Source of the DNA: Gemmatimonadota bacterium
GTDB lineage: Bacteria > Gemmatimonadota > Gemmatimonadetes > Gemmatimonadales > GWC2-71-9
Length of the DNA: 64,000 nt
Direction of reading: 5' to 3'
Assembly: GCA_041486305.1 (NCBI GenBank)
Contig: JBGPLG010000001.1
Coordinates: 84,429 to 148,428, forward strand
This document shows, in pieces, positions 26,265 through 47,299 of the stretch. Each line of letters starts with the position of its first letter. Position 1 is the stretch's first letter. Below the pieces are notes generated by a model. It worked only from the letters and a program-made list of their open reading frames with translations, ran no database searches and had not been told where the DNA came from. Made by a program: the position numbers and the translations under genes.

Positions 26265-26286
26265 CCACCGGGGGCCCCCGGCCCTG

Positions 26287-27696
26287 ATGCCCGATCTCAC
26301 CGCCGTCGACATAGCGGGTAGGGTCGCGAGCAGGGAACTGAGCCCCGTGGCGGTCGTCGAAGCCGCGCTCGCGCGCGTGGCCGCGCTCAATCCCCGCCTC
26401 AACGCCATCGTCACGCTCAACCCGCGCGCCCTCGACGACGCCCGCGCCCTGGAGCGGCGTATTGCGCGGGGCGAGGTCGTGGGCGCCCTGGCGGGCGTGC
26501 CGGTCGGCATCAAGGATGTGACCCAGGTGGCGGGCCTCCGCACCACCTTCGGCGCTCCGCTCTACGCCGACCACGTTCCCGAGCGCGACGCCCTGGTGGT
26601 CGAGCGGCTCCGCGCCGCCGACGCCATCATCCTCGGCAAGACCAACACCCCCGAGTTCGCCGCCGGCGGTAACACCTGGAACGACGTGTTCGGTCGGACC
26701 CGGAATCCCTGGAACCTCCAGAAGAGCGCCGGCGGCTCGACCGGGGGCGGCGCGGTCGGCCTCGCGACCGGCATGATCGCACTCGCCGAAGGCACCGACC
26801 TGGGCGGATCGCTCCGGATTCCGGCGTCGTTCTGCGGCGTCGTTGGTCTCCGGCCATCGCCCGGGCTGGTGCCGACGGTCCCCACCGATTTCGTCTGGGA
26901 CACGCTCCAGGTGAGCGGCCCCATGGCGCGCACCGCGCTCGATCTGGCGCTGATGCTCCAGGCCATCGCCGGGCCCAGCGCCCTGTCCCCGCTGCGGCAG
27001 CCGATCCGGCATCGCGATTTCGTGGCCGCGGTACGCAACGGGCCGCTCCCCGGGCTCCGGGTCGCCTACTGTGCGGACATTGCCGGGATCGGCATTGATC
27101 CCGCGGTCGAGGCCGTCTGCCGTCGCGCCGCAAACCGGCTGGCGGGGCAGGGCGCGCAGCTGGACGTGATCGACCTCGATTTGAGCGCGGGACGCGACGC
27201 GTTTCTCGCGCTCCGGGGTCACTGGTTCGCCTCCTGGATGTCGGAGCGGCTCGACCGGCTGGACCAATTCGGGGTCAACGTCCGGAACAACACCCGGGCC
27301 GGCATCGAAGCGGTGGGAAAGGACCTCGGGCAGGCGGAGATGGTGCGGGGCCGGATCTGGCACCGATTCCACGAGCTCTTCGGGCGCTACGATCACCTCC
27401 TGACGCCCACCATGGCGGTGGCGCCGTTTCCGGTCGAGCAGAACTATCCCGAGACCGTCGCCGGGAAGAAGATGCGGACATACGTCGACTGGCTCGCGCC
27501 TACCTTCGTCCTGAGTCTCACCGGGCTGCCGGTGGCCTCGGTGCCCTGCGGGCTGGATCCCGACGGCATGCCGGTGGGCCTGCAGGTGGTGGGGCCGCCG
27601 GAGGGAGAGGAGGCCGTGCTCGCGCTGGCGCAGGTGCTGCAGGACCTCCACCCGATCGGCGGTCCGGCGATGGCCGGAAGCACTATTCCGTCTTGA
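26287..27696 (+). CDS. amidase-signature family amidase
   Basis: 469 aa. Has GVPVGIKD and the Gly/Ser-rich signature GGSTGGGAVGLATG. Confidence 0.9.
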   Translation: MPDLTAVDIAGRVASRELSPVAVVEAALARVAALNPRLNAIVTLNPRALDDARALERRIARGEVVGALAGVPVGIKDVTQVAGLRTTFGAPLYADHVPERDALVVERLRAADAIILGKTNTPEFAAGGNTWNDVFGRTRNPWNLQKSAGGSTGGGAVGLATGMIALAEGTDLGGSLRIPASFCGVVGLRPSPGLVPTVPTDFVWDTLQVSGPMARTALDLALMLQAIAGPSALSPLRQPIRHRDFVAAVRNGPLPGLRVAYCADIAGIGIDPAVEAVCRRAANRLAGQGAQLDVIDLDLSAGRDAFLALRGHWFASWMSERLDRLDQFGVNVRNNTRAGIEAVGKDLGQAEMVRGRIWHRFHELFGRYDHLLTPTMAVAPFPVEQNYPETVAGKKMRTYVDWLAPTFVLSLTGLPVASVPCGLDPDGMPVGLQVVGPPEGEEAVLALAQVLQDLHPIGGPAMAGSTIPS

Positions 27697-30409
27697 GGGC
27701 CCGGAGCGGATCGACCTGGGTGGCCCTCCGGGCCGGCAGGTAACACGCAACGAGGGCCACCCCGGCCAGAATGAGCGGGACGGCCGTGAACGTAGCCGCG
27801 TCGGTCGCCCCGATTTCGAAGAGCATGTAGGCCATCAGGCGCGTGACGCCGAGGGCCGCGGCCACCCCGAGCGCGATCCCCCCCGCGGCGAGCGCCATCC
27901 CTTCGCCGAGCACCAGCCCGATCACGTCGGGGGCCCGCGCCCCCAGCGCGATGCGCACCCCGATTTCCTGGGTCCGCTGCGCCACGGCATAGTGGAGCAG
28001 GCCGTACAGCCCCACGGCCGCGAGAGCCAGCGCGAAGGCGGCGAATCCGGCCAGCAGCCAGGTCTGGAACCGCCGCGCCGTGCTCAGCGCGCCCAGCGCG
28101 CGGTCGGCGGTGCCGACGCTCAGGATCATCAGGGTCCGGTCCACCGACCGGATCTCCTGCCGGACCGCTGGCGCCAGCGCGAGCGGATTCCCGTCGGTCC
28201 GCAACACCAGGTCGGTCGATCCGCCCAGGTTCGAGCCGAAGTACTCGGGAATGACCCCCTTCTCCAGTCCCTGCCGGTGCATGTCACCCACCACGCCGAC
28301 GATTTCGTACCAGTACACCTTGGGCGGCGCTCCGAGGTAGAACCGCCGGCCGATCGGGTCCCGGTCGGGAAAGAACCGCTGCACGAAGGCCTGGTTCACG
28401 ACCGCGGCCTCCGCCGGCCCCGCGTAATCGACTGCTTCGGATGTGACGAGCAGGTGAACCGCAGCGACCGCGTCCCCCTGGGAATGCAGACGACCCCTCC
28501 GCAGGGGAACCCGCATTGTGGAGAAGAAGCCCGGATCGACCGAACTCGACGCCAGTTGTCCGGTGCCGCCGCCGCCGGGGCCACCCGCGCCGCCCTCGAC
28601 GGTGATGGACTGGTCGGGGTTGTCTCGTCGGAGCAGGCTGCTCACCGCCCCGACATCGCGGACTCCGTGTACGCCCGCAAGGCGCTCGGTAAGCGTGGCC
28701 AGGGCAGCCAGCCTCCGTCCATACACGGTTTCTGCGGGCCCTCGAACTGCAGCGGCCGCTACCCGCACCAGCAGCACATGGTCGGGATCGAAACCCGGAT
28801 CGACCGCTTGCAGGCGCACGGCGCTCCGGATCAGGAGGCCCGCGCCGATGAGCAGGACCACCGCGAGCGCGCACTCGGCCACGACGAGCAGGCTCCGGAT
28901 CCGGCGGGTGCCGGACGCGCCCGGGCCGCCGGTCTTGAGCGCGTCGTTCGGGTTGCTGCGGGACAGTGTCCACGCCGGCACGATGCCGAAGAGAATGCCC
29001 GCGAGAATCGACACGCCCGCCATGAATGCCAGCACCGTCCCGTCCACCCGCATCCCGTCGATCCGGGCGATCCCAGGCGGTGCCGCCGCCGCGAGCACCC
29101 GCACCACCGCCGCCGCGAGGGCCAGGCCCGCCGCGCCGCCGATCCCCGCGAGAGTCAGGCTTTCGGTGAGCAACTGCCGCAATAGGCGCAGCCGGCCGGC
29201 GCCGAGGGACACCCGCACTGCCAATTCGCGGCCCCGGGCGGCCCCGCGCGCGAGCTGCAGGCTGGCGAGGTTCACGCAGGCGATCAGCAGCACCAGGCCG
29301 ACCGCCCCCAGCAGCACCCACAGTGCGCGCTGCAGGTTCTTTCCGGTGACCTGGTCCAGCAGCGGGACCACGGTCACGCCGAACCCGGGAAAATCCGGGT
29401 CCGGGCTGGGATAGGCCTGGGCCAGCCGCCGGCCGATGGCATCCATGTCGACCTGCGCGGCGGAGAAGCTGGCGCCCGGAGCGAGCCGTCCTACCACCCG
29501 CCAGTTGTTGAAGAAGCGGTCTCCACTCTCGCGCTGGAGCCGCCAGTAGGAGGTGACCGGCTCCCAGAGCTGGGTGCCGGGACCGGGGAAGAAGAACTCC
29601 GGCGGCATGACGCCGATGACCCGGACGCTGCGCGGCCCGCCTTTCGACGCGGTACCGTCGCCATCCAGGGAGAGGAACTTGCCTACGACGTCCCGGCGGC
29701 CGCCGAACCGGCGCTGCCAGAGTCCATAGCTCAGCACGACTACTGGCTCGCGCCGCTGCTGGTCCTCGGCGGTGATGCCGCGTCCCAGCAGCGGCTCGGC
29801 GCCGAGGAGAGGGAACAGCCGCGTTGATACGAAGCTGCTGGTGGTCCGCTCGGGCTCGTCTCCCCCCAGCAGGGTGACCGTATTGTCGAAGCTGAATACC
29901 GCCAGCTCGGCGAAGGTCCGGGTCTGGGCCTGCCAGTCCCGAACGGTAGGAAACGAGGTTTCCACCTCGTGGAGCCCGCGCCGGACGTCGTCGGTCCAGA
30001 GGACGGCGAGACGATCGGCGTCCCGGAACGGGAGCGGGCGCAGGATCACGGCGTTGACGCTGCTGAAGATCGCGGTCGTCGCGCCGATGCCGAGGGCCAG
30101 GGTGAGCAGGGCCACCAGCGTAAAGCCCGGGTTCTTCCGCAGCGAGCGCGCCGCATAGCGGAAATCGCTCCCGACCGACTCGAGGTTCGCTTCCCACCCG
30201 CCGCTCCGGGCCTCCTCCTTCACCGCGGCGACGCTTCCGAGCTCCAGCCGGGCCGCCCGCGCGGCCGATTCCGGCGTCATGCCACCGCGAATCCGCTCCC
30301 GGGTGGCCTGCGCGAGGTAGTCCTGCACCTCGTCGTCCAGCTCCGCCTCGACCGCGCGGCGCCGAAACAGGCCGCGCAGTCCATCCCGGATGGATCGCAG
30401 CAGCGCCAT
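27683..30409 (-). CDS. ADOP-type duplicated MacB/FtsX permease with prefix domain (copy 3)
   Basis: Start at ATG 30409 (MALLRSIRDGLRGLFRRRAVEAELDDEVQDYL). Prefix motif GGMTPESAARAARLELGS, TM1 [36 protein letters not shown], tail PARRATQVDPLRALKTE. Confidence 0.9.
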   Translation of the reverse strand: MALLRSIRDGLRGLFRRRAVEAELDDEVQDYLAQATRERIRGGMTPESAARAARLELGSVAAVKEEARSGGWEANLESVGSDFRYAARSLRKNPGFTLVALLTLALGIGATTAIFSSVNAVILRPLPFRDADRLAVLWTDDVRRGLHEVETSFPTVRDWQAQTRTFAELAVFSFDNTVTLLGGDEPERTTSSFVSTRLFPLLGAEPLLGRGITAEDQQRREPVVVLSYGLWQRRFGGRRDVVGKFLSLDGDGTASKGGPRSVRVIGVMPPEFFFPGPGTQLWEPVTSYWRLQRESGDRFFNNWRVVGRLAPGASFSAAQVDMDAIGRRLAQAYPSPDPDFPGFGVTVVPLLDQVTGKNLQRALWVLLGAVGLVLLIACVNLASLQLARGAARGRELAVRVSLGAGRLRLLRQLLTESLTLAGIGGAAGLALAAAVVRVLAAAAPPGIARIDGMRVDGTVLAFMAGVSILAGILFGIVPAWTLSRSNPNDALKTGGPGASGTRRIRSLLVVAECALAVVLLIGAGLLIRSAVRLQAVDPGFDPDHVLLVRVAAAAVRGPAETVYGRRLAALATLTERLAGVHGVRDVGAVSSLLRRDNPDQSITVEGGAGGPGGGGTGQLASSSVDPGFFSTMRVPLRRGRLHSQGDAVAAVHLLVTSEAVDYAGPAEAAVVNQAFVQRFFPDRDPIGRRFYLGAPPKVYWYEIVGVVGDMHRQGLEKGVIPEYFGSNLGGSTDLVLRTDGNPLALAPAVRQEIRSVDRTLMILSVGTADRALGALSTARRFQTWLLAGFAAFALALAAVGLYGLLHYAVAQRTQEIGVRIALGARAPDVIGLVLGEGMALAAGGIALGVAAALGVTRLMAYMLFEIGATDAATFTAVPLILAGVALVACYLPARRATQVDPLRALKTE

Positions 30410-30414
30410 GACGC

Positions 30415-30744
30415 TCACGCCTCGAGCAGCCGGGCGATGGCGGCCGTCCGGCGGGCCCAGTTCCGCGTTTCGGCCGCGAGCTGCTTCTGCCCCTTCGCGG
30501 TGAGCGCGTAGTACTTGGCGGTGCGGTTGTTCTCGGTGGCCCGCCACTCCGCTTTCAGCACCCCGGAGCGCTCCAGCCGCCGGAACGCCAGGAGCAGGGA
30601 GCCGGGGTTGACCTTGAAGACGCCCCGGCTGATCTGCTCGATGCGCCGCCCGATGCCGAACCCGTGCATCGGCTCCAGGGACAGCGACTTGAGGATCAGC
30701 AGATCCAGGGTGCCCTGAATGACGTCGGTCGACTCGCCCGGCAT
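30415..30744 (-). CDS. PadR family transcriptional regulator (acidobacterial-type)
   Basis: MPGESTDVIQGTLDLLILKSLSLEPMHGFGIGRRIE...NRTAKYYALTAKG. ATG 30744 preferred over the TTG at 30786. Confidence 0.88.
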   Translation of the reverse strand: MPGESTDVIQGTLDLLILKSLSLEPMHGFGIGRRIEQISRGVFKVNPGSLLLAFRRLERSGVLKAEWRATENNRTAKYYALTAKGQKQLAAETRNWARRTAAIARLLEA

Positions 30745-30857: not shown

Positions 30858-32375
30858 TCAGGGGCTTGGTGCAGCGAACAGCTTCACGACCTCCGGTTTC
30901 ACCACCTTGCCCATCGCGTTGCGGGGCAGCGCCGGTACCGCGCGCAGCGCCCGCGGCACCTTGTAGGGCGCCAGCCGCTCCTTCGACCAGGCCTGCAGGC
31001 TGCTCAGGGTGAGCTTACGGCCCGGGACCAGCTCCACGGCGGCCGAGACCCGCTCGCCCCAGTCGTCGTCCGGGATTCCTACTACGGCGCACTCCGCGAT
31101 GGCCGGGTGGGCGCGCAGCGTCTCCTCGATCTCCAGCGCCGATACCTTGAACCCGCCGGTCTTGATGATGTCCACGCTGCTCCGGCCCAGGATCCGGTAG
31201 GACTCGTCCTCCACGACCGCGGTATCGCCGGTCCGGAACCAGCCATCGCGGAAGGCGGCCGCCGTGGCTTCGGGGCGCTGCCAGTATTCCAGGAAGATGT
31301 TGGGTCCCCGGACTTCGACTTCGCCCGGCGTGCCGGCGGGCACCGGCCTGCCCTGCTCGTCCACGACTCGCACCTCCACACCGGGCAGCGGCGTACCCAC
31401 GAATCCGGGGCGGCGTTCACCGGCGAGCGGGTTCGAGAGCGCCATGCCGAGCTCGGTCATGCCGTATCGCTCGAGCAGGGTGTGGCCGCTGATCTCCCGC
31501 CACCGGGTAAGGGTCTGCACCGGCAGGGCGGCCGAGCCGGAGACCATGAGCCGGAGCTTTCCGCTCGCAGCCGACATCCGGGCCCGTCGCTTGGGCGCTG
31601 CCGCCTCCCACGCCGCGATCAACTTGCGGTAGATCGTCGGCACCGCCATGAACACCGTCAGCTGGCCCGATTCGATCCGCCGCCAGGTTTCTTCGGCATC
31701 GAATCGCGGAAGCATCTCGCAGACCGCGCCGGACCAGAGCGAGCATCCCACCACATTGACGATGCCGTGGACATGGTGGAGCGGCAGCACCAGGAGGATC
31801 CGGTCCTGCTCGCTCCAGCCCCAGGCTTCGACCAGCGCCGTGATCTGGGCCCGTAGGTTGGCGTGCGAGCACACCACGCCCTTCGGCTTGCCGGTGGTGC
31901 CGCTGGTGTACACCATCATCGCGCGCCGGTCCTCCGCGACGCTCGGCAGATGGGCCGACCGGCCGGCCAGGGCCTCGGTCGCGGTCAGAAAACGGGCACC
32001 CGCGGCCGTCGCGAGCGGCTCGAGCATCGCCGCCGACGCGGCGTCGCCCACGACGATGGAGGCGCCGGAGTCGGTGATCACGTATTCGAGCTCGGCGGGA
32101 GGGTGGGAGGTGGCCAGCGGGACGGCGATCCCGCCCGCCCGCCACGCGCCCCATTGCACCGCAACGTGATCGAAGCCGGGCGCAATCAGGAAGGCGACCC
32201 GGGCCTCCTGGAGATCGGACGCGCCGTCCAGGAAGCAGGCCGCCGCTCGGGCCGAGGCGTCGGAGAGCTGAGCATAGGTGAACTCACCCTCGCGGTCGAC
32301 GATCGCCGGCCGGTACGGATCCGCGTCGGCGCGTTGGATCAGGGGGAGGGGAGGGGCCACGGACATGGGACCCAA
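30858..32375 (-). CDS. AMP-dependent acyl-CoA synthetase/ligase (MatB-like size and motifs)
   Basis: 505 aa. Has the AMP-binding motif MVYTSGTTGKPKGVV, GWFRTGD and a C-terminal catalytic Lys region NAMGKVVK. Confidence 0.88.
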   Translation of the reverse strand: MGPMSVAPPLPLIQRADADPYRPAIVDREGEFTYAQLSDASARAAACFLDGASDLQEARVAFLIAPGFDHVAVQWGAWRAGGIAVPLATSHPPAELEYVITDSGASIVVGDAASAAMLEPLATAAGARFLTATEALAGRSAHLPSVAEDRRAMMVYTSGTTGKPKGVVCSHANLRAQITALVEAWGWSEQDRILLVLPLHHVHGIVNVVGCSLWSGAVCEMLPRFDAEETWRRIESGQLTVFMAVPTIYRKLIAAWEAAAPKRRARMSAASGKLRLMVSGSAALPVQTLTRWREISGHTLLERYGMTELGMALSNPLAGERRPGFVGTPLPGVEVRVVDEQGRPVPAGTPGEVEVRGPNIFLEYWQRPEATAAAFRDGWFRTGDTAVVEDESYRILGRSSVDIIKTGGFKVSALEIEETLRAHPAIAECAVVGIPDDDWGERVSAAVELVPGRKLTLSSLQAWSKERLAPYKVPRALRAVPALPRNAMGKVVKPEVVKLFAAPSP

Positions 32376-33360: not shown

Positions 33361-33852
33361 ATGCCCCGCACCATCCTGCTGCCCGGCCTCGCCTTGATTA
33401 TGCTCGCCGCCCCGCCGCGGCTCCCCGCGCAGACCGGCGCGCCCGACCTCAGGCTCCGCAGCGTCACGGTCATCGTGCGGGACTACGACGAGGCCAGGAA
33501 GTGGTACACCGAAAAGCTGGGCTTCGAGGTCGAGATCGACCGGACCTTCGCTCCGGGACAACGCTTTCTCCGGGTGCATCCGCCGGGACAACCCGGGCTC
33601 GGCATCGTGCTGGAAACGCCGGGCGACGGCGCCGACCCCGCGATGCCGCGCGCCTACCAGGACCGGATCGGCAAGGAGGTGTCGTGGGTGTTTGAATCGG
33701 AGGATGTCGCCAAAACCTACGAGCTGCTCAAGGGGCGGGGCGTGGAATTCACCCAGGCGCCGAAGCAGAGGCCCTGGGGCACCGAGGCGCTGTTCCGGGA
33801 TCTCTATGGCAACGCGTTCGTGATCATCGGGCCGAGCCGCAAGAGCCCCTAG
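33361..33852 (+). CDS. VOC (glyoxalase/bleomycin-resistance/dioxygenase) family protein with signal peptide
   Basis: Signal MPRTILLPGLALIMLAAPPRLPAQ, then a VOC beta-alpha-beta-beta-beta pattern (VTVIVRDYDEARKWYTEKLGF...FRDLYGNAFVI). Confidence 0.82.
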   Translation: MPRTILLPGLALIMLAAPPRLPAQTGAPDLRLRSVTVIVRDYDEARKWYTEKLGFEVEIDRTFAPGQRFLRVHPPGQPGLGIVLETPGDGADPAMPRAYQDRIGKEVSWVFESEDVAKTYELLKGRGVEFTQAPKQRPWGTEALFRDLYGNAFVIIGPSRKSP

Positions 33853-34927
33853 CGCCGCAGGCCAGCGCGAGCCGGGCGAAGGCCAGGGCCTCCGCCTCCC
33901 CGAAGCCGGCTTCGGTGTTCGACAGGATGGCCACCGCGACGCCCTGGTCGGGATACACCAGGATAAAGGCGCGGCCGCCGGTGGAGGCGCCGCCGTGGTG
34001 GACGTAGCGCCGGCCCAGCGAGTCCGTCGCGATGCGCCAGCCCAGCCCCACCGGAACAGGCATTCCGGCGCTGGTGTGCTGCTGGGTCAGGAGGAGGGCA
34101 CGGACCGAATCGGGGAGATAGCCGGGAGCGAAGACGCCGAGCCCGAAGCGGGCCAGCTCCTCCGCGGAGGAGATCACGCCGCCGGCGGGCCACCGGTCGC
34201 TCAGGTCCACCAGGTGGGACGGCTGATATTTCCCGTCGCTGTCTCTGGTATAGGGCCGGGCCTGGTCCCCGGCCGGTCCACCGCCGGGCTCGAGGCCGGT
34301 GCGGATGAGCTCGAGTGGCCGCGCCACTTCCTGCTCCAGCAGCTCGCCATAGCTCTTTCCCGACGCGGCTTCCAGGACCGCCCCCAACAAGTTGTACCCG
34401 TACGTGGAGTAGAAGTAGCGGGTGCCGGGCGGAGTGAGCAGGGTATCCCCGAGAAAGATTCCCAGGCTCGCGGGCACCGACGGATAGTGGGTCTGGTTTT
34501 CGAACTCGCCGGGTCCGTAGTGGCGAACTCCGGCGAGATGCCCGGCCAGCAGACGAGCGGTCAGGGTTCGGTACGGCCCCGGCAGTCTGGGCAGGTACCG
34601 GGAGATCGGTGCGTCGAGATCGAGGCGGCCGGCGGCTACCAAACGGGCCGCGATCGACGCGGTGAACACCTTCGAGACGCTGCCGACCCGGAAAACGGTC
34701 GAGCGCTCGATCCGGCGTCCGGTTTCGAGATCGGCCCGGCCGATCTGCCATCTCCACAACTGCCCGTCCGCAAGCGCCACGGCGATCGAGACGCCGGGAA
34801 GATCGAGTTTTTCGTAGAGCGCCTGGGCGAGCGAGTCCGATCGCTCCGCGACGACCGGGCTGGGCGGTGCGGGTGAGGGGCCGCACGCCGCGACGGCCAG
34901 CGCGAAGGCGAGTACCCGGCGCGTCAT
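33824..34927 (-). CDS. serine hydrolase (beta-lactamase/PBP4-like family) lipoprotein
   Basis: Start ATG 34927 (MTRRVLAFALAVAACGPS, lipobox VAAC). SxxK motif in FRVGSVSKVFTAS. The ATG overlaps the TGA of the upstream permease (ATGA). Confidence 0.85.
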   Translation of the reverse strand: MTRRVLAFALAVAACGPSPAPPSPVVAERSDSLAQALYEKLDLPGVSIAVALADGQLWRWQIGRADLETGRRIERSTVFRVGSVSKVFTASIAARLVAAGRLDLDAPISRYLPRLPGPYRTLTARLLAGHLAGVRHYGPGEFENQTHYPSVPASLGIFLGDTLLTPPGTRYFYSTYGYNLLGAVLEAASGKSYGELLEQEVARPLELIRTGLEPGGGPAGDQARPYTRDSDGKYQPSHLVDLSDRWPAGGVISSAEELARFGLGVFAPGYLPDSVRALLLTQQHTSAGMPVPVGLGWRIATDSLGRRYVHHGGASTGGRAFILVYPDQGVAVAILSNTEAGFGEAEALAFARLALACGARGSCGSAR

Positions 34928-37584
34928 TCTCCCCGCAGCACGATCGCCGGGTCGGCCCGAGTGGCCCGGCGGGCCGGGATCCAGCAGGCCGCGAACGCGA
35001 CCCCCAGGAACAGCGCGGCGGAAAGCCCCAGGACCGCGGGGTCGGCCGGGGTGACCTGGTACAGGAGTTTCGACAGGCTGCGCGCGATGAGCCACCCCGC
35101 GCCGAGCCCGCATCCGGCACCCAAGACGGCATCGCGCATACCGGAGCGGACCACTTCCGCGACCACCTGGGTATCACTGGCGCCGAGGGCCCGGCGCAGA
35201 CCCATTTCCCGGGTCCGCTGGGCCACGATATGCGAGATCACGCCGTAGACGCCGAGTCCCGCCAGCGCGGCCGCGAGCAACGCGAACAGGCCCATGACCC
35301 AGGCCCGGAACCGCTGCGGGGTGGAGGCGTGCCGCACCACCGCCTCCATGGTCTGCACCTGGCTCACCGGCAGGTCGGGATCCATCGCGTTGATGATCCG
35401 GCGCACCTCCGTCACCAGCGACAGCGGGCTCACGCTGGTGCGGAGCACCATGGTCAGGTAGCCCTCGGGAACCATCTCGGTGTTGCCGTAGATGATGGCG
35501 CGCGGCTCCTGGTCGAGGCCCCGCTCGCGCACGTCGCCCGCCACCCCGATGACATACCCCTGGGGGCGGTCGTCGTCCGGGCCCGGCTGCGCCGCCACCC
35601 GGATGAACCGGCCCAGGAACTTCCCGTCGGGCCAGAACTTCTTCGCCGCCGCGGCGCTGATGACGACGACCGGTCGGCCGCCCCGCCGGTCTTCCGCCGT
35701 GAACCCGCGGCCGGCGACGATCGGGATCCGCTGGGTGGCGAAGTAGTCGGCCGAGACCAGCCGGAGCTGGGCCGATTGGCTCACGCCGTCGGGCACCGGC
35801 ACGCTGTCGATGGTGAAGCTCGAGCTGTACCCGAACCCGTCGAGCGGCAGCCCGAAGACCAGGGAGGCGGACTCGACCCCGTTGATCGCGCCGAGCCGCC
35901 GCAACAGCTCCTGCTGGAACTGGACGATCGGCACGCTCTTGCCGTAGGTCTTGTCCGGGAGGGACACGCTCGCGGTAAGAGTCGACGAGGCATCAAACCC
36001 GGGATTCACCTGCTCCAGCCGCATTTTGCTCTTCACCAGCACCCCGGCCACCGCCAGGAGCGCCAGCGCCACCGCCGTCTCCACCGCCACCAGCCAGCGG
36101 TGCAACCCCCGCCGGGTGCCGACGCTCCGGCCACTGCCGCCGGCCAGCGCGGTGCGCAGATCGATCCGGGCGATCCGGCGCGCCGGCGCCAGGCTCACCA
36201 GCAGGGCAGCCAGCATGGTGACGCCCAGGGTGAAGAGCAGCGCCGGGGGATCGAGCCGGACCGTCTCGATCCGCGGCACGCCCTGGGGCGCGAAACGGCG
36301 GATCATTCCCGCACCGAATACCGCCACCGGAATCGCCGCCATCGCGCCGACCCCCACCAGCACCAGCACTTCGCTCGCGCCGTGCCAGAGCAGGCGCCCG
36401 CGCCCGGCGCCGAGCGCGCTCCGCAGCGCCACCTCGCCGCTCCGGCCGATGGCGCGCACCAGGACCAGGTTGGCGACGTTGGCGCAGGCGAGGATCAGCA
36501 GCAGGCCCACTCCGGTCATGAGAAGGATCAGCGTCGGGCGCGACTCCTCCACCACATCCTCGTGAAGCGATCGGAGATCCACGGTCCAGTTGGCGCTCGA
36601 CCTGGGGAACACCCGCGCGATGCGTGCCGCCAGCGTGACCAGCTCGGTTTTGGTGCCGGCAAGGGTAGCTCCGGCGGCGAGGCGCCCGGCGACATCGAGG
36701 TAGTGGCCACCCCGCTGCGAGGCGACGTCCCGGGGCGTCTGAAACGGGATCCAGGCGGCGCCCTCCCCGACCGGGAATTCGAAGCCCTGGGGCATCACGC
36801 CGATGATCTCGTAGCTCTCGCCGTCCAGGATCCAGCGTTTCCCCAGCACCGCCGCATCGCGGCCGAACCGGCCGACCCAGGTCCCGTAGGAGAGGATCGC
36901 GACGTGGGTCGCGCCGTTCTCGAACTCAGGGTCGACAAAACCGCGGCCCAGTGTGGGGGCCACCCCGGTCACCGCCTGGAATCCGCGGGTGACCGAGATG
37001 ACGGACACCTGCTCCGCCGGACCCATGCCGGTCGCGGCGGATTGGGATTCGGTCCAGGCGACCATCGCCCGGAAGCCCTGGCTCTCCCGCGCCCAGTCGT
37101 AGAAGTCGGCCGGAGCGACCGGAAAGGTCGGCCATCCGTCCGTGGGATTGCTGGAGGAGATCTTGATCAGCTCCCCGGGATTCGGATACGCCAGCGGCTT
37201 GAGGACCACGCCGCGGAGAACCGAGAAGACGGTGGCGTTGAGCCCGATGCCGAGCGCCAGGACCAGCACGGCGGTGGCGGTGAATCCGGGCGCCCGAAGC
37301 AGCGCCCGGCTCGATTGCCGAATGCCCTGGCACGCGCCGGCCCACCATTCGCGCCGGCGCCGCTCCTTCCGCTCGGCGATATCGATGGCCCGGCATTCGG
37401 CGGCGTAGCGGGACAGGGGGCCGAAGCGCTGCTCGGCCTCCCGGCGGGCGTCCTCGGGTGACAGGCCGCTCCGGGCCAGTGCCTCGGCTTTCATCGCGAG
37501 ATGGGCCTCGAACTCCGCCGCGACGTCTTCCGCGGGCGGCGGCTCCCGGCCGATCAACCGGAACAGCGAACGAAACCTGGTCAT
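34924..37584 (-). CDS. ADOP-type duplicated MacB/FtsX permease with prefix domain (copy 4)
   Basis: 886 aa. Prefix motif SGLSPEDARREAEQRFGP, TM1 LLRAPGFTATAVLVLALGIGLNATVFS, tail [17 protein letters not shown]. Confidence 0.92.
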   Translation of the reverse strand: MTRFRSLFRLIGREPPPAEDVAAEFEAHLAMKAEALARSGLSPEDARREAEQRFGPLSRYAAECRAIDIAERKERRRREWWAGACQGIRQSSRALLRAPGFTATAVLVLALGIGLNATVFSVLRGVVLKPLAYPNPGELIKISSSNPTDGWPTFPVAPADFYDWARESQGFRAMVAWTESQSAATGMGPAEQVSVISVTRGFQAVTGVAPTLGRGFVDPEFENGATHVAILSYGTWVGRFGRDAAVLGKRWILDGESYEIIGVMPQGFEFPVGEGAAWIPFQTPRDVASQRGGHYLDVAGRLAAGATLAGTKTELVTLAARIARVFPRSSANWTVDLRSLHEDVVEESRPTLILLMTGVGLLLILACANVANLVLVRAIGRSGEVALRSALGAGRGRLLWHGASEVLVLVGVGAMAAIPVAVFGAGMIRRFAPQGVPRIETVRLDPPALLFTLGVTMLAALLVSLAPARRIARIDLRTALAGGSGRSVGTRRGLHRWLVAVETAVALALLAVAGVLVKSKMRLEQVNPGFDASSTLTASVSLPDKTYGKSVPIVQFQQELLRRLGAINGVESASLVFGLPLDGFGYSSSFTIDSVPVPDGVSQSAQLRLVSADYFATQRIPIVAGRGFTAEDRRGGRPVVVISAAAAKKFWPDGKFLGRFIRVAAQPGPDDDRPQGYVIGVAGDVRERGLDQEPRAIIYGNTEMVPEGYLTMVLRTSVSPLSLVTEVRRIINAMDPDLPVSQVQTMEAVVRHASTPQRFRAWVMGLFALLAAALAGLGVYGVISHIVAQRTREMGLRRALGASDTQVVAEVVRSGMRDAVLGAGCGLGAGWLIARSLSKLLYQVTPADPAVLGLSAALFLGVAFAACWIPARRATRADPAIVLRGE

Positions 37585-37593
37585 GATCCCTCC

Positions 37594-37929
37594 TTACCGT
37601 TCCGCGGGGCCGAGCACCCGCTCCACCGCGCTCACATAACGACTCCACAGGGACACTTCGGCCCGCAGCTGGACCCGGCCCTTGGAAGTCAGACGATAGA
37701 ACTTGGCCTTCCGGTTGTTCTCGGACAGCCCCCATTCCGACTCGACCCAGCCGCGCCGCTCCAGCCGGTGCAGGGCGGGGTAGAGCGCGCCTTCCTCGAT
37801 CAGGAACTCCTCGCCGGAGCGCTCCCGGATCCAGGTGGACACCGCATAGCCGTGACGGGAGCCCCAGGAGAGGGCCTTGAGCACCAGGAGATCGAGGGTG
37901 CCCTGCAGCAGGTCGAGTGACGGAGCCAT
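37594..37929 (-). CDS. PadR family transcriptional regulator (acidobacterial-type)
   Basis: MAPSLDLLQGTLDLLVLKALSWGSRHGYAVSTWI...NNRKAKFYRLTSKG. An alternative ATG lies at 37941. The longer ORF to 38310 was rejected. Confidence 0.88.
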   Translation of the reverse strand: MAPSLDLLQGTLDLLVLKALSWGSRHGYAVSTWIRERSGEEFLIEEGALYPALHRLERRGWVESEWGLSENNRKAKFYRLTSKGRVQLRAEVSLWSRYVSAVERVLGPAER

Positions 37930-37945
37930 GACCGTTCCCATAGTG

Positions 37946-37980
37946 ATCTTATGGGAAGAGTGCCACGCTTCCCATAAGAT
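37946..37980. promoter_or_regulatory. perfect 13-9-13 inverted repeat, candidate PadR operator
   Basis: ATCTTATGGGAAG - AGTGCCACG - CTTCCCATAAGAT, 17 nt upstream of the padR ATG. Extra half-site copies lie at 37934-37943 (inverted) and 37985-37992 (direct). Confidence 0.55.
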
Positions 37981-38053
37981 GTCAATGGGAAGCCGCGATG
38001 GCGGCGGGCGGGGCGCCGCGGTATCGTAGAGATCGTCCTTCTCCGGGTCCCCC

Positions 38054-39835
38054 ATGACCGATGATGTTTCCCGGCGCGACTGGCTCAAGGCCGCCGGTGC
38101 CGCGGGCGTGGCCGGCGCCTCCGGCCTGATTCCGCCGGGAACATCCTTGCCGCTCCAGGCCCCTGCGTCGCGGTCCACGATTCTTCCCCTGGTCTCCACC
38201 TCCGAGGTCTTCGTCCCCGGACGGGGACGCGGCTTCCAGCGGTTCAGTTTCGATTTTCCCGAGCCTTCGATCGAGTTTGCCGGGCTGCGATTCGGATTCC
38301 TGGTGTTCACCCGCGAGAACGTCTACGGGCTCGATCTGGACCAAATGGAAGCGGAGGGCGACGCCGACCGCCTTACCCTCGAGGCCAGGGGGATGGTGTG
38401 GGCGGGCGGTCAGCGGCGCGCGCCGGGCCGCCTGACGGTCCGGTTCCGCCGGAGCGGCGACACCGTCGAGTGGGACGCCGAGGCGGAAATGGACCAGCCC
38501 ATCAAGAGCGTCACCACGGTGATCCGGGGCTTGCCACGGGGGAAGATTTCCGCCGGGGGCGGCGCGCCGTTCGATCCGCGGGACGACGAGCTGCTCTTCG
38601 GTTATCCGTTCGGCGCCGGCGATCTCTTTGGTGGAAACACCGCGGGGGGCTTGGGCACTCCGTACATGGCGATCGTCGGAACCGACCAGGTCTGGTCGCT
38701 CGCCTCACTCGACGACAAGGTACGGGCCAAGCGGTTTTTCTTTCAGCCCGGGGAGAGCGGTTACCGGGTCGAGGCGGTCTTCGAGGTCGAGGGTTGGCTG
38801 GATCAGCGCCGCCTGAAGGTTCCCGCGTGGAGGCTCGCGCGGGGCACGTCGCTCGACGCGGCCACCGACGCCCACTACGCCCATCTGGAGCGGGCCTACA
38901 ACTTTCCCGCCTGGGAAACCCGGGCGGATGTCCCCGATTGGCTCCGCAAGACCGCGCTGGTGCTCTCGTTGCATGGGGCCCACTACACCGGCTTCGTGTT
39001 CAACGACTATGCCCGGATGCTGGAGATCCTCCGCTGGACCGCCACCCGGATCCCCGCCGACCGGGTCCTGGTCTTTCTGCCGGCGTGGGACGGGCGCTAC
39101 TACTGGAACTACCCCCTGTACCGGGCGGACCAGGGGATGGGGGGAGAGGCCGGACTCAAGCGACTGATTGCCGAAGGGCACGCGCTGGGCTTCAAGATCA
39201 TGCCCATGTTCGGGATGAACACCGCGAACAAGCGGCATCCCGAATTCGCGAAGTTCGCCGATGCCGCCACCCAGCGAATCGACGGCGACCAGTTCGACCT
39301 CGACTGGGTGGACTGGGACAACGACCGCCACCAGGAGGGCTGGGTGGCCTACATGAACCTGGGCGTCGACTCGTGGCGCCGCTGGCTCACCGAGCGGATT
39401 GCCGACGTCATCGAGCGCTACGGCGCCGATGCGTATTTCCTGGACATTTCCGGCGGGTGGATCAACAATCAGAAGGCCGACATGCACGCGGGAACCCGCC
39501 GGATGGTCGCGGATCTCCGGGCCCGGTATCCCCAGGTGCTGGCCTGCGGCGAGTTTCCCTACGACGCACTGATGGAATTTCTCCCGCTGTTTCACGTGTA
39601 CTCGAAGCCGGGCATGAAATACTCGCGATTCTTTTCCCACCTGAGTCATCCGGCGCCGGGCCGGGGCAGCAGCGGGGTGCACGAGTCGGGCTTCGGCCGG
39701 TTCAACCCGCAGACGCTCTCCATGTCGCAGGGCCCGATCCCGACCATCAGCGTGGTCGAAGACACCTTCACGAAATACCGCGACACCATGGCCGCCGCCA
39801 TTGCCAAGGCGAAAGAGCTGGGAGGCATTCCATGA
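38054..39835 (+). CDS. TAT-exported hypothetical protein (possible TIM-barrel glycosidase-like)
   Basis: Twin-arginine signal MTDDVSRRDWLKAAGAAGVAG. No family recognised. The C-terminal half has alternating strand/helix segments with acidic motifs (AYFLDISGGW, ACGEFPYD). ATGA overlap with the GH127 gene. Confidence 0.7.
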   Translation: MTDDVSRRDWLKAAGAAGVAGASGLIPPGTSLPLQAPASRSTILPLVSTSEVFVPGRGRGFQRFSFDFPEPSIEFAGLRFGFLVFTRENVYGLDLDQMEAEGDADRLTLEARGMVWAGGQRRAPGRLTVRFRRSGDTVEWDAEAEMDQPIKSVTTVIRGLPRGKISAGGGAPFDPRDDELLFGYPFGAGDLFGGNTAGGLGTPYMAIVGTDQVWSLASLDDKVRAKRFFFQPGESGYRVEAVFEVEGWLDQRRLKVPAWRLARGTSLDAATDAHYAHLERAYNFPAWETRADVPDWLRKTALVLSLHGAHYTGFVFNDYARMLEILRWTATRIPADRVLVFLPAWDGRYYWNYPLYRADQGMGGEAGLKRLIAEGHALGFKIMPMFGMNTANKRHPEFAKFADAATQRIDGDQFDLDWVDWDNDRHQEGWVAYMNLGVDSWRRWLTERIADVIERYGADAYFLDISGGWINNQKADMHAGTRRMVADLRARYPQVLACGEFPYDALMEFLPLFHVYSKPGMKYSRFFSHLSHPAPGRGSSGVHESGFGRFNPQTLSMSQGPIPTISVVEDTFTKYRDTMAAAIAKAKELGGIP

Positions 39836-43490: not shown

Positions 43491-44675
43491 CTAGCGCAGT
43501 TCCCGCAACCGGGCCAGCTCGGCCGATTCGATCAGCCGTCCGCTCAGGACCACCGCGGACAGCGAGCGAAGGTTCCTGATGTCGGCGAGCGGGTCGGCGT
43601 CGAGCACCAGAAACATCGCCGGCGCCCCCACTTCGATGCGCCCGCTGCCGTGGTGCAGCACCGCCTCGGCAGCGGTGGTGGTGCCGGCCGCCAGGGCCTG
43701 GCGTGGCGTCATCCCGATCTCCACCAGCCGTTCCAGCTCGAGCAGCAGCACGTCGCCGTGCCGTTCCAGTACGTCGGAGCCGGCCAGGATCGGCACTCCC
43801 GCCTTCACGATCCGTCCCGCGAGCAGCTTCATCCGCGCATACGCCTCCCGCCGCCGCGCCGCGACCTCGGGGCTCGCCGTGGCAAAGGTCGCCTCATAGC
43901 CGACCAGGGTCGGATCGAAGAAGGTGTGGTTGCGCTTGAGAACGGCCCAGATGGAATCGCCATGGGGGCCCATGAGCCGGTCGGTGATCTGGAGGAACAG
44001 CTCGGGGGTCACCTTCAAGTCGGGCTGCTCGTTCTCGAAGATGGTCTGAATGTGCTCGATGGTACGCATGCCGCGATTCGACGCCTCGATCCAGGAGAGC
44101 GCCAGGGGAACATGTCCGCTCACCGTGAGGCCATTGCGGCGTGCCTCATCGATGACCGCGAGAAACGCCGGCCTTCCGATCGCGCGGTGCACCTTGATGA
44201 AGTCCACGCCCAGCGCCCGGAGCTCGCGCACGGCCGCGCGGGCCTCGGCCTCGGTGACGACCTTGCGGTGGAACGGGGCGGGCTGCTCGCCGTTGAGGGT
44301 GGGGCCGGCCATCACGATCTCGGGCCCGATCCGGTCGCCGGAACGGATCCGGCCCCGCAACGGAAACAGGGTGTCGGGAAACCCGCCCATGTCGCGTATA
44401 CCGAGCACGCCGTACCCGACGTACTGTTCCGGCGCATTCCCGACCGGGCCGGACGACGCCAGATGGGCGTGCATGTCCCAGAGCCCCGGGACCAGGAATT
44501 TTCCATGCGCATCGACGACCCGGGCGCCGGGAGGAACCCGGGGCGCCCGCCCGACGGCCGTCACGTGCCCGCGTTCCACCACCACGGTGCCCTGGGTGGC
44601 CGGGCTCTTCCCGGTGGGATCGATGATGGTGCCGTTGGCGATGACCAGCGCCTGCGCAAGCAGCGATCCTATCAA
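43491..44675 (-). CDS. amidohydrolase-superfamily metal hydrolase (Xaa-Pro dipeptidase / imidazolonepropionase-like)
   Basis: VIANGTIIDPTG...GKFLVPGLWDMHAHL (HxH metal motif). I prefer the TTG start at 44675: GGGAGG lies 4 nt upstream and it forms a TTGA overlap with the permease stop. The longest ORF starts at GTG 44735. Confidence 0.82.
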   Translation of the reverse strand: MIGSLLAQALVIANGTIIDPTGKSPATQGTVVVERGHVTAVGRAPRVPPGARVVDAHGKFLVPGLWDMHAHLASSGPVGNAPEQYVGYGVLGIRDMGGFPDTLFPLRGRIRSGDRIGPEIVMAGPTLNGEQPAPFHRKVVTEAEARAAVRELRALGVDFIKVHRAIGRPAFLAVIDEARRNGLTVSGHVPLALSWIEASNRGMRTIEHIQTIFENEQPDLKVTPELFLQITDRLMGPHGDSIWAVLKRNHTFFDPTLVGYEATFATASPEVAARRREAYARMKLLAGRIVKAGVPILAGSDVLERHGDVLLLELERLVEIGMTPRQALAAGTTTAAEAVLHHGSGRIEVGAPAMFLVLDADPLADIRNLRSLSAVVLSGRLIESAELARLRELR

Positions 44676-47299
44676 CCGTCCTCCCGGAGTGTCACCGCCG
44701 GGTCCACCCGCAGCGCGCGGCGGGTGGGAAGCCACGTCGCCAGCGCGGCGACGCCCACGAGGACTCCGGCTACGAGTACCAGGGTGACGGGGTCGCTGGG
44801 TGAAAGCCCGTAGAGGAGTTTACCCAGGAAGCGCGTGGTCGCAAGCGATGCCGCCAGGCCGACCGCGACGCCGAGGCCCACGAATCGAGACCCTTCGCCC
44901 ACGACCAGCCGTGCGATCCTGCCTCCGGTGGCGCCGAGGGCCCGGCGGAGCCCGATCTCGCGGGACCGCTGGCCGACGATGTAGGCCAGCACCCCGTAGA
45001 GTCCGATCGCCGAGAGGATCAGGGCGAGCACGGCGAGGAGGCTGAGCAGCAGCATCGGGTAGCGGCGGTCGGCGGTGGACTCCGCGAGGCGCGATTCGAG
45101 CGTCTCCACGGCGAGCACCGGGAGGGAGCGGTCTATCGCGGCGATTTCCCGGCGCACCAGCGGCGCGAGCGCCGCCGTCCCAGCGGAAACCCGGATCACG
45201 ACCGTCATGTCGGCCGGCGGCCCCTGCAGGAACGGATAGAACACCGTCGGCCGGGGATCCACGTCCAGGCCGTCGCGCCGCATGTCTCCCACGACGCCGA
45301 CGACCTCGAGGACCGTATCCGGCTCGGCCATATCGACGCGGATCCGCTGGCCGATCGGCGACGCGCCCTTGAGCACCTGCCGAGCGAAGGCCTTGCTGAT
45401 GAGGACCACGCGCGGGGCGCCCAGGCGATCGGCGGCGATGAACCCGCGACCCTGCACCAGCGGAGTCCGCATGGCGCGGAGGTATGACGCGTCGACGGTA
45501 TTCACTTCGGTGACCGCGGCCTGGCCCGCCGGTGGCTCGGGCTGTCCGACGATATGCACCGATGTCGCGGGCGCCAGGCCGCGCAGCGGAAGGAAGTTCA
45601 CCAGGCCCACGTCGTCCACGCTCCGAAGAGCGCCGATGCGCCGGGCCAGCTCCTCATAGAAGGCGGCCTTCTTTTCCGGCGGACCATACGCATCACCGGG
45701 GAGGCGGAGCTGGACCGTCAGGACGCTCCGGGGATCGAACCCCGGCTGCACCGAGAGCAGATTGGCGAGGGAGCGCACCGTCAGGCCCGCGCCGGTCAGC
45801 AGCATCAGGCTGAGCGCCACCTGGACCGACACCAGCGCACCGCGCAGGGTCCGGCCCCGGGGAGCCGAGCCGGCTTCGCCCCCCCTGCGGCTGAGCGGCT
45901 GGCGCAGCGAGCTCTCCCGGAGCGCCAGCGCGGGCGCCAGTCCGAACGCCAGGCCAGCCAATGCGGTGATCAGGAGGGCGAATCCCAGCACCCTGAAGTC
46001 AATGCTCACTTCCTGAAGCCGCGGAATCTGCCGCACCTGGGCATGTACCAGCGCGCGGACGCCCAGCGCCGCCGCCACGATGCCCAGCCCGCCACCCGCA
46101 GCCGCAAGCACCAGCCCTTCCACCACCATCTGCCGCAGGATCCTCCCGCGCGATGCGCCGAGGGCCGCCCGCACCGCGAGCTCGGTACGGCGCGCCAGCA
46201 CCTGACCCAGCTTGAGGTTGGCGACGTTGGCGCAGGCGATCAGCAGCACCGACGCGATGGCTCCGGCGAGCAGCAGGAGCACCGGACGCGCCCTGCCGGT
46301 GACCTGGTCCTGCAGCCCGATCACATCGGCGGTCCAGCCCGTGTTGAACTTCGGATACTCCCCCGCAAGCGAGACGGCGATGGCATGCATTTCCCGGTCG
46401 GCGGCGGCGGCGGTGACTCCTTCGCGAAGCCGGCCGATCACCATGGCGTAGCGGCCCCGGCGCACCTGCTGGCTGCTGGTGACCGCCCAGGGTTCCCAAT
46501 ACTCCTCGCCGCCCATCGGCCGGAAGCCGCGGGGCATGACGCCCACCACCCGGGCGGTCGCGTCCCGAAGCACCACGGTTCTGCCGATCACCGTGGGATC
46601 TCCGCCGAACCGGCGGAGCCAGAGCCCATGGCTCAGCACCAGCGCCACCGGCGCTCCCGGGAGCGTGTCTTCGGGCGCGAGCAGCCGTCCCAGCGCCGGG
46701 CGGACGCCAAGGGTGGGGAAGAAGTTGGTGGTGACGGCGCGCCCGTCGAGAATCTCCGGCGCGTCACCGCTGAGTGGGGCGCTGGCCCAGGTATACATCG
46801 CCAGGGACTCGAAGCTCCGGGCCCGGTCGCGCCAGTCCACGAAGTTGGCGGGCGCCACCAGATTCTCGCGGCGGTCGCGCGGGATGTTGTGCTCCCAGAC
46901 CTGGACCAGCCGGCCGGAATCGGCGTAGGGCAATGACTTGAGCAGCACCGCATCGAGCACGCTGAAGAGCGCGGTGGTGACGCCGATGCCGAGCATCAGG
47001 GTGAGGATGGCGGCGGCCGCGTACCCTGTGCGGCGCCGAAGGCCGCGCAAGGCGTACTTCACGTCCTGGGTGAAGTCGTCCCAGGCCGGCGGCGACCAGA
47101 CGGCGCGGGCGCTTTCCCGGGCCTGGGCCGTGTTCCCCACCTGGCGCCGCGCCGCGAAGCGGGCCGCTTCGGGGTCGGCGCCCTCGCGCCGCGCATCTTC
47201 GGCGGCCATCTCTTCGTGGAAACCGAGCTCGTCATTGAGATCCGCCTCGAAGCGGCCGCGACGGAGGAGGTGGAGGATGCGCCGGATGATGCTGCTCAT
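44672..47299 (-). CDS. ADOP-type duplicated MacB/FtsX permease with prefix domain (copy 5)
   Basis: Start at ATG 47299 (MSSIIRRILHLLRRGRFEADLNDELGFHEE). Prefix motif EGADPEAARFAARRQVGN, TM1 LRRRTGYAAAAILTLMLGIGVTTALFS, tail PTRRALRVDPAVTLREDG. Confidence 0.9.
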   Translation of the reverse strand: MSSIIRRILHLLRRGRFEADLNDELGFHEEMAAEDARREGADPEAARFAARRQVGNTAQARESARAVWSPPAWDDFTQDVKYALRGLRRRTGYAAAAILTLMLGIGVTTALFSVLDAVLLKSLPYADSGRLVQVWEHNIPRDRRENLVAPANFVDWRDRARSFESLAMYTWASAPLSGDAPEILDGRAVTTNFFPTLGVRPALGRLLAPEDTLPGAPVALVLSHGLWLRRFGGDPTVIGRTVVLRDATARVVGVMPRGFRPMGGEEYWEPWAVTSSQQVRRGRYAMVIGRLREGVTAAAADREMHAIAVSLAGEYPKFNTGWTADVIGLQDQVTGRARPVLLLLAGAIASVLLIACANVANLKLGQVLARRTELAVRAALGASRGRILRQMVVEGLVLAAAGGGLGIVAAALGVRALVHAQVRQIPRLQEVSIDFRVLGFALLITALAGLAFGLAPALALRESSLRQPLSRRGGEAGSAPRGRTLRGALVSVQVALSLMLLTGAGLTVRSLANLLSVQPGFDPRSVLTVQLRLPGDAYGPPEKKAAFYEELARRIGALRSVDDVGLVNFLPLRGLAPATSVHIVGQPEPPAGQAAVTEVNTVDASYLRAMRTPLVQGRGFIAADRLGAPRVVLISKAFARQVLKGASPIGQRIRVDMAEPDTVLEVVGVVGDMRRDGLDVDPRPTVFYPFLQGPPADMTVVIRVSAGTAALAPLVRREIAAIDRSLPVLAVETLESRLAESTADRRYPMLLLSLLAVLALILSAIGLYGVLAYIVGQRSREIGLRRALGATGGRIARLVVGEGSRFVGLGVAVGLAASLATTRFLGKLLYGLSPSDPVTLVLVAGVLVGVAALATWLPTRRALRVDPAVTLREDG

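Follow-up and report, generated by a model that had tools for sequence, protein, structure and literature searches.

A 64,000-nucleotide stretch from the genome of a soil bacterium of the Gemmatimonadota (contig JBGPLG010000001.1, positions 84,429 to 148,428; hereafter the window) carries three genes head to tail and tightly packed on its minus strand, encoding a PadR-family regulator, a permease of the ADOP family and an exported serine hydrolase. We propose, with a probability of roughly 55%, that these genes would constitute a PadR/HAAS-ADOP module that regulates itself and includes a periplasmic hydrolase which is both co-expressed and exchangeable. The partner that never varies is PadR, which is tied to the N-terminal prefix of the permease. 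The hydrolase is dispensable to the ADOP orthogroup studied and can be lost with PadR-ADOP intact. Since it has been lost from an intact PadR-ADOP pair, or apparently exchanged, the best reading of these gene comparisons would be that the hydrolase is an accessory, exchangeable output of the regulator/permease core and not an obligatory structural subunit. The features on which the argument rests are the following.

37594..37929, minus strand: PadR-family winged-helix regulator of the acidobacterial-type paralogue family, 111 amino acids (Pfam PadR, E = 2.7e-20; TIGR03433, 138.6 bits against a cutoff of 101.8)
34924..37584, minus strand: ADOP permease, 886 amino acids (TIGR03434, 790.3 bits against a cutoff of 622.3, model positions 3-803; two MacB_PCD and two FtsX domains in Pfam)
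37315..37584, minus strand: HAAS-like cytoplasmic N-terminal prefix of the permease, approximately residues 1-90 (NF038403 'permease prefix domain 1', E = 9.6e-12)
34924..34927, minus strand: ATGA stop/start overlap of permease and hydrolase genes (direct sequence reading)
33824..34927, minus strand: LACTB-like serine hydrolase of the S12/PBP-beta-lactamase fold, 367 amino acids (PF00144, E = 5e-64)
34883-34927, minus strand: lipoprotein signal peptide of the hydrolase, residues 1-15
37935..37991, no strand assigned: near-palindrome of 57 bp, the putative promoter/operator of padR (no inverted repeat of the window is longer)

The padR gene lies 10 nt upstream of the permease gene. The permease ends in ...LRGE-TGA (GGA GAA TGA) with its stop codon at 34926-34924, and the ATG of the hydrolase gene (34927-34925) shares bases with that stop, just as a first-pass annotation of this DNA had described. 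The same annotation had placed PadR and a perfect 13-bp inverted repeat at the 5' end of the cluster, which is correct once the padR coordinates are changed to those listed above. It had further concluded that permease and hydrolase are made in fixed stoichiometry, and this cannot be deduced from an ATGA overlap. A 4-nt overlap was present in 9/65 (14%) of other ADOP-to-next-gene pairs in a metagenome sample and is, taken alone, an ordinary operon feature. The shared stop and start codons make translational coupling likely, without implying a fixed ratio. At the far end of the cluster, a convergent glyoxalase gene overlaps the 3' end of the hydrolase gene by 29 nt (33824-33852), and the transcription unit in the Gemmatimonadales genome studied therefore stops after the hydrolase.

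Conservation of the trio in one Gemmatimonadales clade

Hydrolase orthologues formed a discrete set at 59-83% identity, beyond which identity fell to 53% or less. Seven orthologue queries were traced to six distinct loci (P0003, P0013, P0017, P0021, P0023 and the frameshifted P0024), and starting from ADOP orthologues added a seventh trio locus, L170. All of the traced hydrolase orthologues (7/7, including the frameshifted fusion) stood directly behind an orthologous ADOP that was itself preceded by an orthologous PadR. The trio was present in eight inspected loci (the window, L081-L085, L088 and L170), all from one Gemmatimonadales clade, a label that was taken from the source names of the ADOP orthologues. 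Identities across these loci were 64-85% for ADOP, 79-88% for PadR and 62-79% for the hydrolase, and the genes upstream of padR varied. The ADOP-hydrolase junction read ATGA or GTGA in L081, L082, L085, L088 and L170, as well as in a hydrolase remnant in L172 that is described below, and consisted of 3-nt gaps in L083 and L084. In a long-read assembly (L088:2834-7707), PadR, ADOP and hydrolase-AMP-binding are broken or fused by frameshifts, and P0024, the 'fusion protein', probably arose as an artefact of assembly.

The ADOP orthogroup was also discrete, with about 57 clusters at 63-90% identity followed by a sharp fall to 41% or less. PadR was found upstream of the ADOP orthologue in 12/12 inspected loci, and a same-strand AMP-binding gene lay downstream in 11/12.

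Hydrolase homologues outside the orthologue set were examined for the same arrangement. P0025, at 51% identity, no longer had an adjacent ADOP. Among the matches listed, which came from species-representative genomes, 80 homologues at 36-48% identity included a single one with an ADOP directly upstream (1/80), in the Acidobacteriota locus L001. We rejected L001, where the hydrolase is 43% identical, as a case of real linkage: with seven ADOPs in approximately 960 kb of flanks, about 0.6/80 are expected, so that chance suffices. From the ADOP side, 124 ADOP 3' ends were collected from metagenomes, representing paralogues at 32-39% identity and taken as an unbiased sample of ADOP surroundings, and these gave 65 same-strand neighbours within 150 nt. 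PF00144, the family of the window hydrolase, accounted for 0/65 of them. Another ADOP was the neighbour in 41/65, and the remaining 24/65 were mixed, comprising a TolC-like OEP, an amidohydrolase, an aspartyl protease-PDZ protein, an alpha/beta hydrolase, an S41 peptidase, a metallo-beta-lactamase (MBL)-fold protein, an ABC ATPase, a histidine kinase and others. The enrichment of serine hydrolases 3' of ADOPs, for which the first-pass annotation had proposed a synteny survey, was not seen in this sample. Its related expectation, that the permease-hydrolase adjacency is conserved in relatives, holds for the eight loci of one clade and does not extend to a general ADOP partner.

Loss and apparent replacement of the hydrolase

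Several loci carried the orthologous PadR-ADOP pair and no PF00144 gene. In L171 and L174-177 the pair is followed directly by the acyl-CoA synthetase gene, and in L173 by a second ADOP. L172, from the Gemmatimonadales metagenome-assembled genome (MAG) GCA_036006105.1, encodes an ADOP that is 83% identical to that of the window and is otherwise syntenic with L081. A 28-codon hydrolase remnant, MIRASVILALAYLAGVACRSGHSCEVPG, is encoded at L172:7655-7745, in which the signal peptide and lipobox are joined to the C-terminal tail (compare ...LGLACRSGNLCGVPR in L081) and the ATGA is kept. This is a clean internal deletion, with endpoints beside two sites that code for an 'AC' dipeptide. In a neighbour-joining (NJ) tree of ADOPs, L172 was sister to L081 with 94% bootstrap support and nested inside the hydrolase-bearing group, and the loss is therefore recent. 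Basal support in this tree was 4-18%, at which loss and original absence are not separable for L171/L174 and L173.

Some of these loci encode a different hydrolase. An alpha/beta-hydrolase with a lipobox of its own directly follows the AMP-binding gene at L171:9209-10081, L172:11678-12565 and L174:8202-9077. It was confined to these three loci, the only ones that lack PF00144 and have an AMP-binding gene; within the available flanks, no PF00144-bearing locus showed it. The three represent only two independent lineages, and the numbers are small; from the gene content, it looks as if one secreted serine hydrolase was replaced by another.

These distributions bear on the possibility that permease and hydrolase have no functional link, the hydrolase having landed behind the permease in the ancestor of the clade and having been kept there by synteny in a catabolic neighbourhood (acyl-CoA synthetase, amidase, cyclase and Mo-hydroxylase). 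The restriction of the adjacency to one clade agrees with this, as do the conservation of the wider neighbourhood (AMP-binding, amidase, cyclase and DAO), the commonness of 4-nt overlaps (14%) and the visibly undamaged PadR-ADOP pair after hydrolase loss. However, the ADOP-hydrolase junction is tight at hydrolase identities as low as ~60%, in contrast to the flanking genes on both sides (beyond padR and beyond the hydrolase), which differ from locus to locus. No hydrolase orthologue, among those traced, was found apart from ADOP, and the complementary distribution of the alpha/beta-hydrolase lipoprotein also argues for a link. We consider the absence of any functional link quite unlikely.

The acyl-CoA synthetase gene is a fourth member of the cluster in most relatives, and had been missed by the first-pass annotation together with the connection between PadR and the permease prefix. 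In most relatives it stands directly after the hydrolase gene, or directly after the ADOP gene if the hydrolase is absent (e.g. L082-L085, L170, L171 and L174). In the window it is displaced by ~1.45 kb through an insert of glyoxalase and ArsR-AHSA1 genes, and in L081 and L172 through an insert of amidohydrolase and PaaX genes. Its product matched the NCBIfam models for malonyl-CoA synthase and acyl-CoA synthetase best, without reaching the cutoff of either. The two downstream genes of the window that concern us here are the following.

33361..33852, plus strand: convergent glyoxalase/VOC-family gene (Pfam Glyoxalase, E = 1.2e-14)
30858..32375, minus strand: acyl-CoA synthetase-like AMP-binding gene (Pfam AMP-binding, E = 2.6e-77)

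PadR, the permease prefix and the padR promoter

The association of PadR with the permease follows the N-terminal prefix. Among 94 ADOP N-termini, every ADOP with an upstream PadR had the prefix (18/18) and no prefix-less ADOP had a PadR (0/67; Fisher p = 5e-13). The nine prefix-bearing ADOPs without an adjacent PadR were mostly later members of tandem arrays. Residues 8-65 of the window prefix match NF038403 above its cutoff (E = 9.6e-12), and the AlphaFold2 (AF2) model places three helices at residues 18-38, 43-54 and 57-97; HAAS domains consist of three helices, the third of them kinked.

This arrangement resembles the HAAS-PadR dyads (PMC11237479) and the TIGR03433-TIGR03434 pairs of Acidobacteria, in which a standalone PadR gene lies directly upstream of a gene for a membrane protein with a short, three-helix cytoplasmic N-terminus. 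The PadR and the permease of the window each exceed the curated cutoff of their TIGR model. HAAS-PadR dyads have been described as an alternative to two-component signalling, and HAAS fusions to FtsX-like transmembrane regions with MacB/PCD domains are on record (PMC11237479). The window locus differs from these dyads in that its prefix matches Pfam HAAS weakly, its host belongs to the Gemmatimonadales and is not an acidobacterium, and a secreted hydrolase is encoded in the same operon.

The region upstream of padR contains the perfect 13-bp inverted repeat, with arms at 37968-37980 and 37946-37958 and a 9-nt spacer. It is the core of the 57-bp near-palindrome, whose 28-nt arms (37935-37962 and 37964-37991) are 86% complementary. 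The near-palindrome is made up of four half-sites of the TTCCCAT/ATGGGAA type and a conserved TTGACA (37980-37985), and these half-sites and the TTGACA are kept upstream of padR in L081-L088 and L170-L173. The padR promoters of all orthologues have in common TCCCATTGACA...TTA(G/T)GGGA...TTCCATAAGAT...TTATGGGAA. The other padR genes of the window have different palindromes, which fits a predicted arrangement of one operator per PadR. A strict scan for sigma-70 promoters and terminators called a promoter neither at padR nor internally, ahead of the hydrolase gene, and no terminator behind the latter. The single terminator-like match, inside the ADOP gene, is within chance expectation.

The hydrolase resembles LACTB

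The N-terminus of the hydrolase, MTRRVLAFALAVAAC..., matches the lipobox pattern (PS51257-type; [LVI][ASTVI][GAS]C, preceded by a positively charged n-region and a hydrophobic h-region), and the active-site motifs are S83-V-S-K, Y173-S-T and H310-H-G. The lipobox and the SVSK motif, which is at residue 83, had both been recognized correctly in the first-pass annotation. Residues S83, K86, Y173, H310, H311 and G312 were invariant in 24 hydrolase homologues. All hydrolase orthologues have a signal peptide, which bears out the earlier assignment of the enzyme to the outside of the cytoplasm; the lipobox cysteine is confined to the closest orthologues, and the rest have ordinary signal peptides. 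A Lol-like role, in which ADOP would be a dedicated lipoprotein releaser for the hydrolase, was rejected as the leading explanation, because the lipobox is not conserved where the adjacency is kept.

Profile and fold searches led to the same relatives. With a profile of 24 homologues searched against the PDB (hmmsearch), the best solved relative was human LACTB (7v21_A, E = 5.2e-65), followed by alkaline D-peptidase, R61 DD-peptidase, SurE and ClbP. The AF2 model of the hydrolase (pLDDT 89) gave LACTB as the top Foldseek match (7v21_C, E = 4e-30, TM 0.80), and R61 DD-peptidase, alkaline D-peptidase and ClbP came next. LACTB, a mitochondrial serine beta-lactamase-like protease (PDB 7V21, 7ULW), has the motifs SISK, YST and HTG (PMC2266909), and the SxxK, YST and HxG patterns are common to both proteins. 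Identity to LACTB and to the bacterial S12 peptidases (R61 DD-peptidase, alkaline D-peptidase and ClbP) is only 26-28%. Where LACTB has a mitochondrial presequence and HTG, the window hydrolase has a bacterial signal peptide with a lipobox, and HHG. Judged by motifs and modelled fold, the window hydrolase is best called a LACTB-like S12 peptidase, amidase or esterase that is exported to the periplasm.

This identity bears on the suggestion of the first-pass annotation that the locus may be a sense-and-degrade resistance module, here considered in the form in which the hydrolase would be an inducible beta-lactamase. The PF00144 fold with its SxxK motif and weak matches to AmpH and class C models speak for it. 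However, the score on the NCBIfam model bla_class_C was 83.6 bits, far under the cutoff of 415, and the second motif is the YST of LACTB rather than YxN. The solved structures nearest to the enzyme are those of peptidases (LACTB, alkaline D-peptidase, R61 DD-peptidase and ClbP). Identification of the enzyme as a class C beta-lactamase was rejected on motif and score, and a beta-lactam resistance module is in our estimate highly improbable.

The closest orthologues have in common a C-terminal tail with two cysteines (residues 355-367 of the window hydrolase; e.g. ACGARGSCGSAR and ACRSGNLCGVPR), which more distant orthologues do not have. The two cysteines may form a disulfide loop.

The permease resembles YbbP

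The permease has two periplasmic MacB_PCD domains. Hydropathy gave seven membrane segments, and eight are implied by the two FtsX repeats. The top Foldseek match of its AF2 model (pLDDT 83) was E. coli YbbP (9ge6_A, E = 1.3e-22 over 893 columns), at a global TM-score of only ~0.4, and MacB, LolCDE and BceAB came next. Two short helices, at residues 382-390 and 791-799, match the coupling helices of type VII transporters in position, and many residues there were invariant across 32 ADOPs. These conserved motifs hint at the docking of an ATPase that would be encoded elsewhere. No ABC_tran gene was found in or adjoining the operon in the window locus and 11 other orthologous loci. The window as a whole has no transporter ATPase, its sole ABC ATPase being a Uup-like ABC-F protein at 16462-18426, 17 kb off. 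Elsewhere in the family, a MacB/FtsE-type ABC ATPase gene lies directly downstream of ADOP at L050:1625-2287 and L139:2627-3196, and the term 'orphan' thus does not hold family-wide.

YbbP is the permease of YbbAP-TesA, a 2:1:1 complex; it has been proposed that this permease takes hydrophobic molecules out and offers them to TesA (PMC12646458). Permease and hydrolase of the window might likewise be physically associated, after the pattern of YbbAP-TesA or of FtsEX and its hydrolases, with an ABC ATPase encoded elsewhere. In such a complex a hydrophobic or peptidic compound would be extracted from the membrane or periplasm and handed to the docked hydrolase, or the hydrolase would be switched on allosterically. 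The structural match to YbbP (PMC12646458) and the predicted coupling helices are in line with such a complex. So are the junction, which overlaps or spans at most 3 nt in every hydrolase-bearing orthologue, the position of every traced hydrolase orthologue behind an orthologous ADOP, and the appearance of another lipoprotein serine hydrolase in the cluster where PF00144 is missing and the AMP-binding gene is present. The comparison with YbbAP-TesA (PDB 9GE6-9GE8) extends to a single-polypeptide, internally duplicated permease, two MacB-like periplasmic domains and a linked gene for a periplasmic serine hydrolase.

Several features argue against a complex. YbbP has 10 transmembrane helices and its operon includes the YbbA ATPase, whereas the window ADOP has about eight according to its model, and the operon has no ATPase gene. 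TesA is a GDSL/SGNH esterase, whereas the window hydrolase has the S12/LACTB-like fold. The linkage of tesA is widespread; that of the window hydrolase is limited to one clade and lost in some of its members, with the ADOP orthologue intact without it in L171-L174. A general ADOP-PF00144 linkage was absent from both surveys (0/65, and 1/80 among the matches listed), and the lipobox is kept only in the closest orthologues. A further related system is FtsEX with EnvC, PcsB, CwlO or RipC (e.g. PMC7668044, PMC10694151), a case of type VII ABC mechanotransmission to cell-wall hydrolases, in which the function of an extracytoplasmic hydrolase depends on a membrane component of the FtsX type that has a periplasmic domain. 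FtsX is, however, unduplicated and paired with FtsE. The proteins it acts on are coiled-coil activators or enzymes of the NlpC/P60, CHAP or amidase kinds, not PF00144 proteins, and PadR control is absent. We regard a physical complex as unlikely. The first-pass annotation had favoured a MacB-like unit that presents a substrate to a partner hydrolase; YbbAP-TesA gives that idea an experimental precedent and YbbP a structural match, and the missing ATPase gene and the dispensable hydrolase speak against it.

Proposed mechanism

In the autoregulated module that we favour, PadR would repress its own operon by acting at the palindrome. The permease would be a fused pseudo-dimer of the MacB/LolCE/YbbP type, whose two periplasmic domains may sense a compound of the periplasm or the membrane, or handle it. 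The permease would relay this state through the cytoplasmic HAAS-like prefix to PadR, upon which the operon would be de-repressed. The hydrolase would be made along with the permease, with translation probably coupled and the ratio not fixed, and would act in the periplasm on a compound of the peptide, amide or ester type, cleaving either the one sensed or a related one. The downstream acyl-CoA synthetase may then activate the released acid.

A number of points weigh against this proposal. PadR binding, an inducer and a substrate are all postulated, and the strict sigma-70 scan made no promoter call at padR. Pfam HAAS matches the window prefix weakly (E = 0.011; the gathering score is 27 bits) and gave E = 0.0024-0.078 in 3/10 prefixes, each under the gathering score; a profile of 15 prefixes found no meaningful match in the PDB. 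The conserved coupling helices, and the ABC ATPase genes beside a few ADOPs (L050 and L139), suggest that the permease may be a true ATP-driven machine rather than a sensor alone. A physical complex of permease and hydrolase, like that of YbbAP-TesA, would agree just as well with the tight, conserved junction. Lastly, the hydrolase-less loci were chosen for having no matching hydrolase contig, and the count of eight loci with and four without the hydrolase is thus not an unbiased frequency.

A bolder proposal goes further. ADOPs might be self-regulating extractors, in which a YbbP-like pseudo-dimer, powered by an ATPase in trans, draws a compound from the envelope and presents it to an exchangeable docked periplasmic serine hydrolase (LACTB-like here, an alpha/beta lipoprotein in sister lineages) and the HAAS-like prefix reports occupancy to PadR, by which expression of the operon would be tuned. 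We offer this as a speculative extension and hold it to be doubtful.

Place of the locus among ADOP systems

ADOP permeases were named in 2009 and form a very large family in Acidobacteriota and Gemmatimonadota, where, in these dominant soil phyla, a single genome has dozens of copies. The literature searched contained no functional study of ADOPs and only passing mentions in two papers. PadR-ADOP pairs are already known as an uncharacterized kind, and the HAAS-PadR concept is published. New here are the clade-specific, tightly coupled LACTB-like hydrolase, its natural loss and apparent replacement by a different hydrolase, and the structural likeness of the permease to that of the one known transporter-hydrolase complex.

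The orthogroup offers a tractable entry to ADOP function, as it combines a defined permease with a conserved palindrome, a dedicated PadR, a hydrolase that is naturally lost or apparently replaced across sister genomes, and a linked acyl-CoA synthetase. If permease and hydrolase interact, the newly described principle of YbbAP-TesA would also apply to hydrolases of another fold, and to permeases that lack an ATPase and are under PadR control. Without an interaction, the locus would be one more PadR-ADOP pair with a cargo gene.

Other ADOPs and neighbouring genes in the window

By tblastn, the window contains five ADOP paralogues and four PadR genes, including those at 3185-8666, 27683-30732 and 44672-47717. 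A PadR gene directly upstream and an N-terminal prefix of ~80 amino acids were found for 4/5 of these ADOPs. The fifth (6186-8666, minus strand) has neither PadR nor prefix and begins directly at the DLRF motif.

The ADOP gene at 44672-47341 (minus strand) is followed by a same-strand amidohydrolase open reading frame (ORF) at 43491-44675 (minus strand; Amidohydro_1, E = 4e-13), and the TTG start of the latter overlaps the TGA stop of the former as TTGA. No signal peptide was found in the product of this ORF. An amidohydrolase with a signal peptide, 26% identical to it, follows an unrelated ADOP in L100.

The third window ADOP is convergent with an amidase gene. A second convergent 3' overlap in the window, of 14 nt (27683-27696), is that between the ADOP gene at 27683-30379 and the amidase gene.

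Divergently from padR, positions 38054-39835 (plus strand) encode a protein of 593 amino acids that has a twin-arginine signal and was not confidently assigned to a Pfam family, and a GH127-like gene comes next. The same pair of genes also adjoins padR in L081 and L172. On the other side of the cluster, a catabolic block at 21633-27696 (plus strand) comprises genes for a molybdenum subunit of the carbon monoxide dehydrogenase (CODH)/xanthine-dehydrogenase family, an FAD-binding subunit, a cyclase (PF04199) and an amidase, and this block was likewise found beside orthologous loci, for example L082, L084 and L088.

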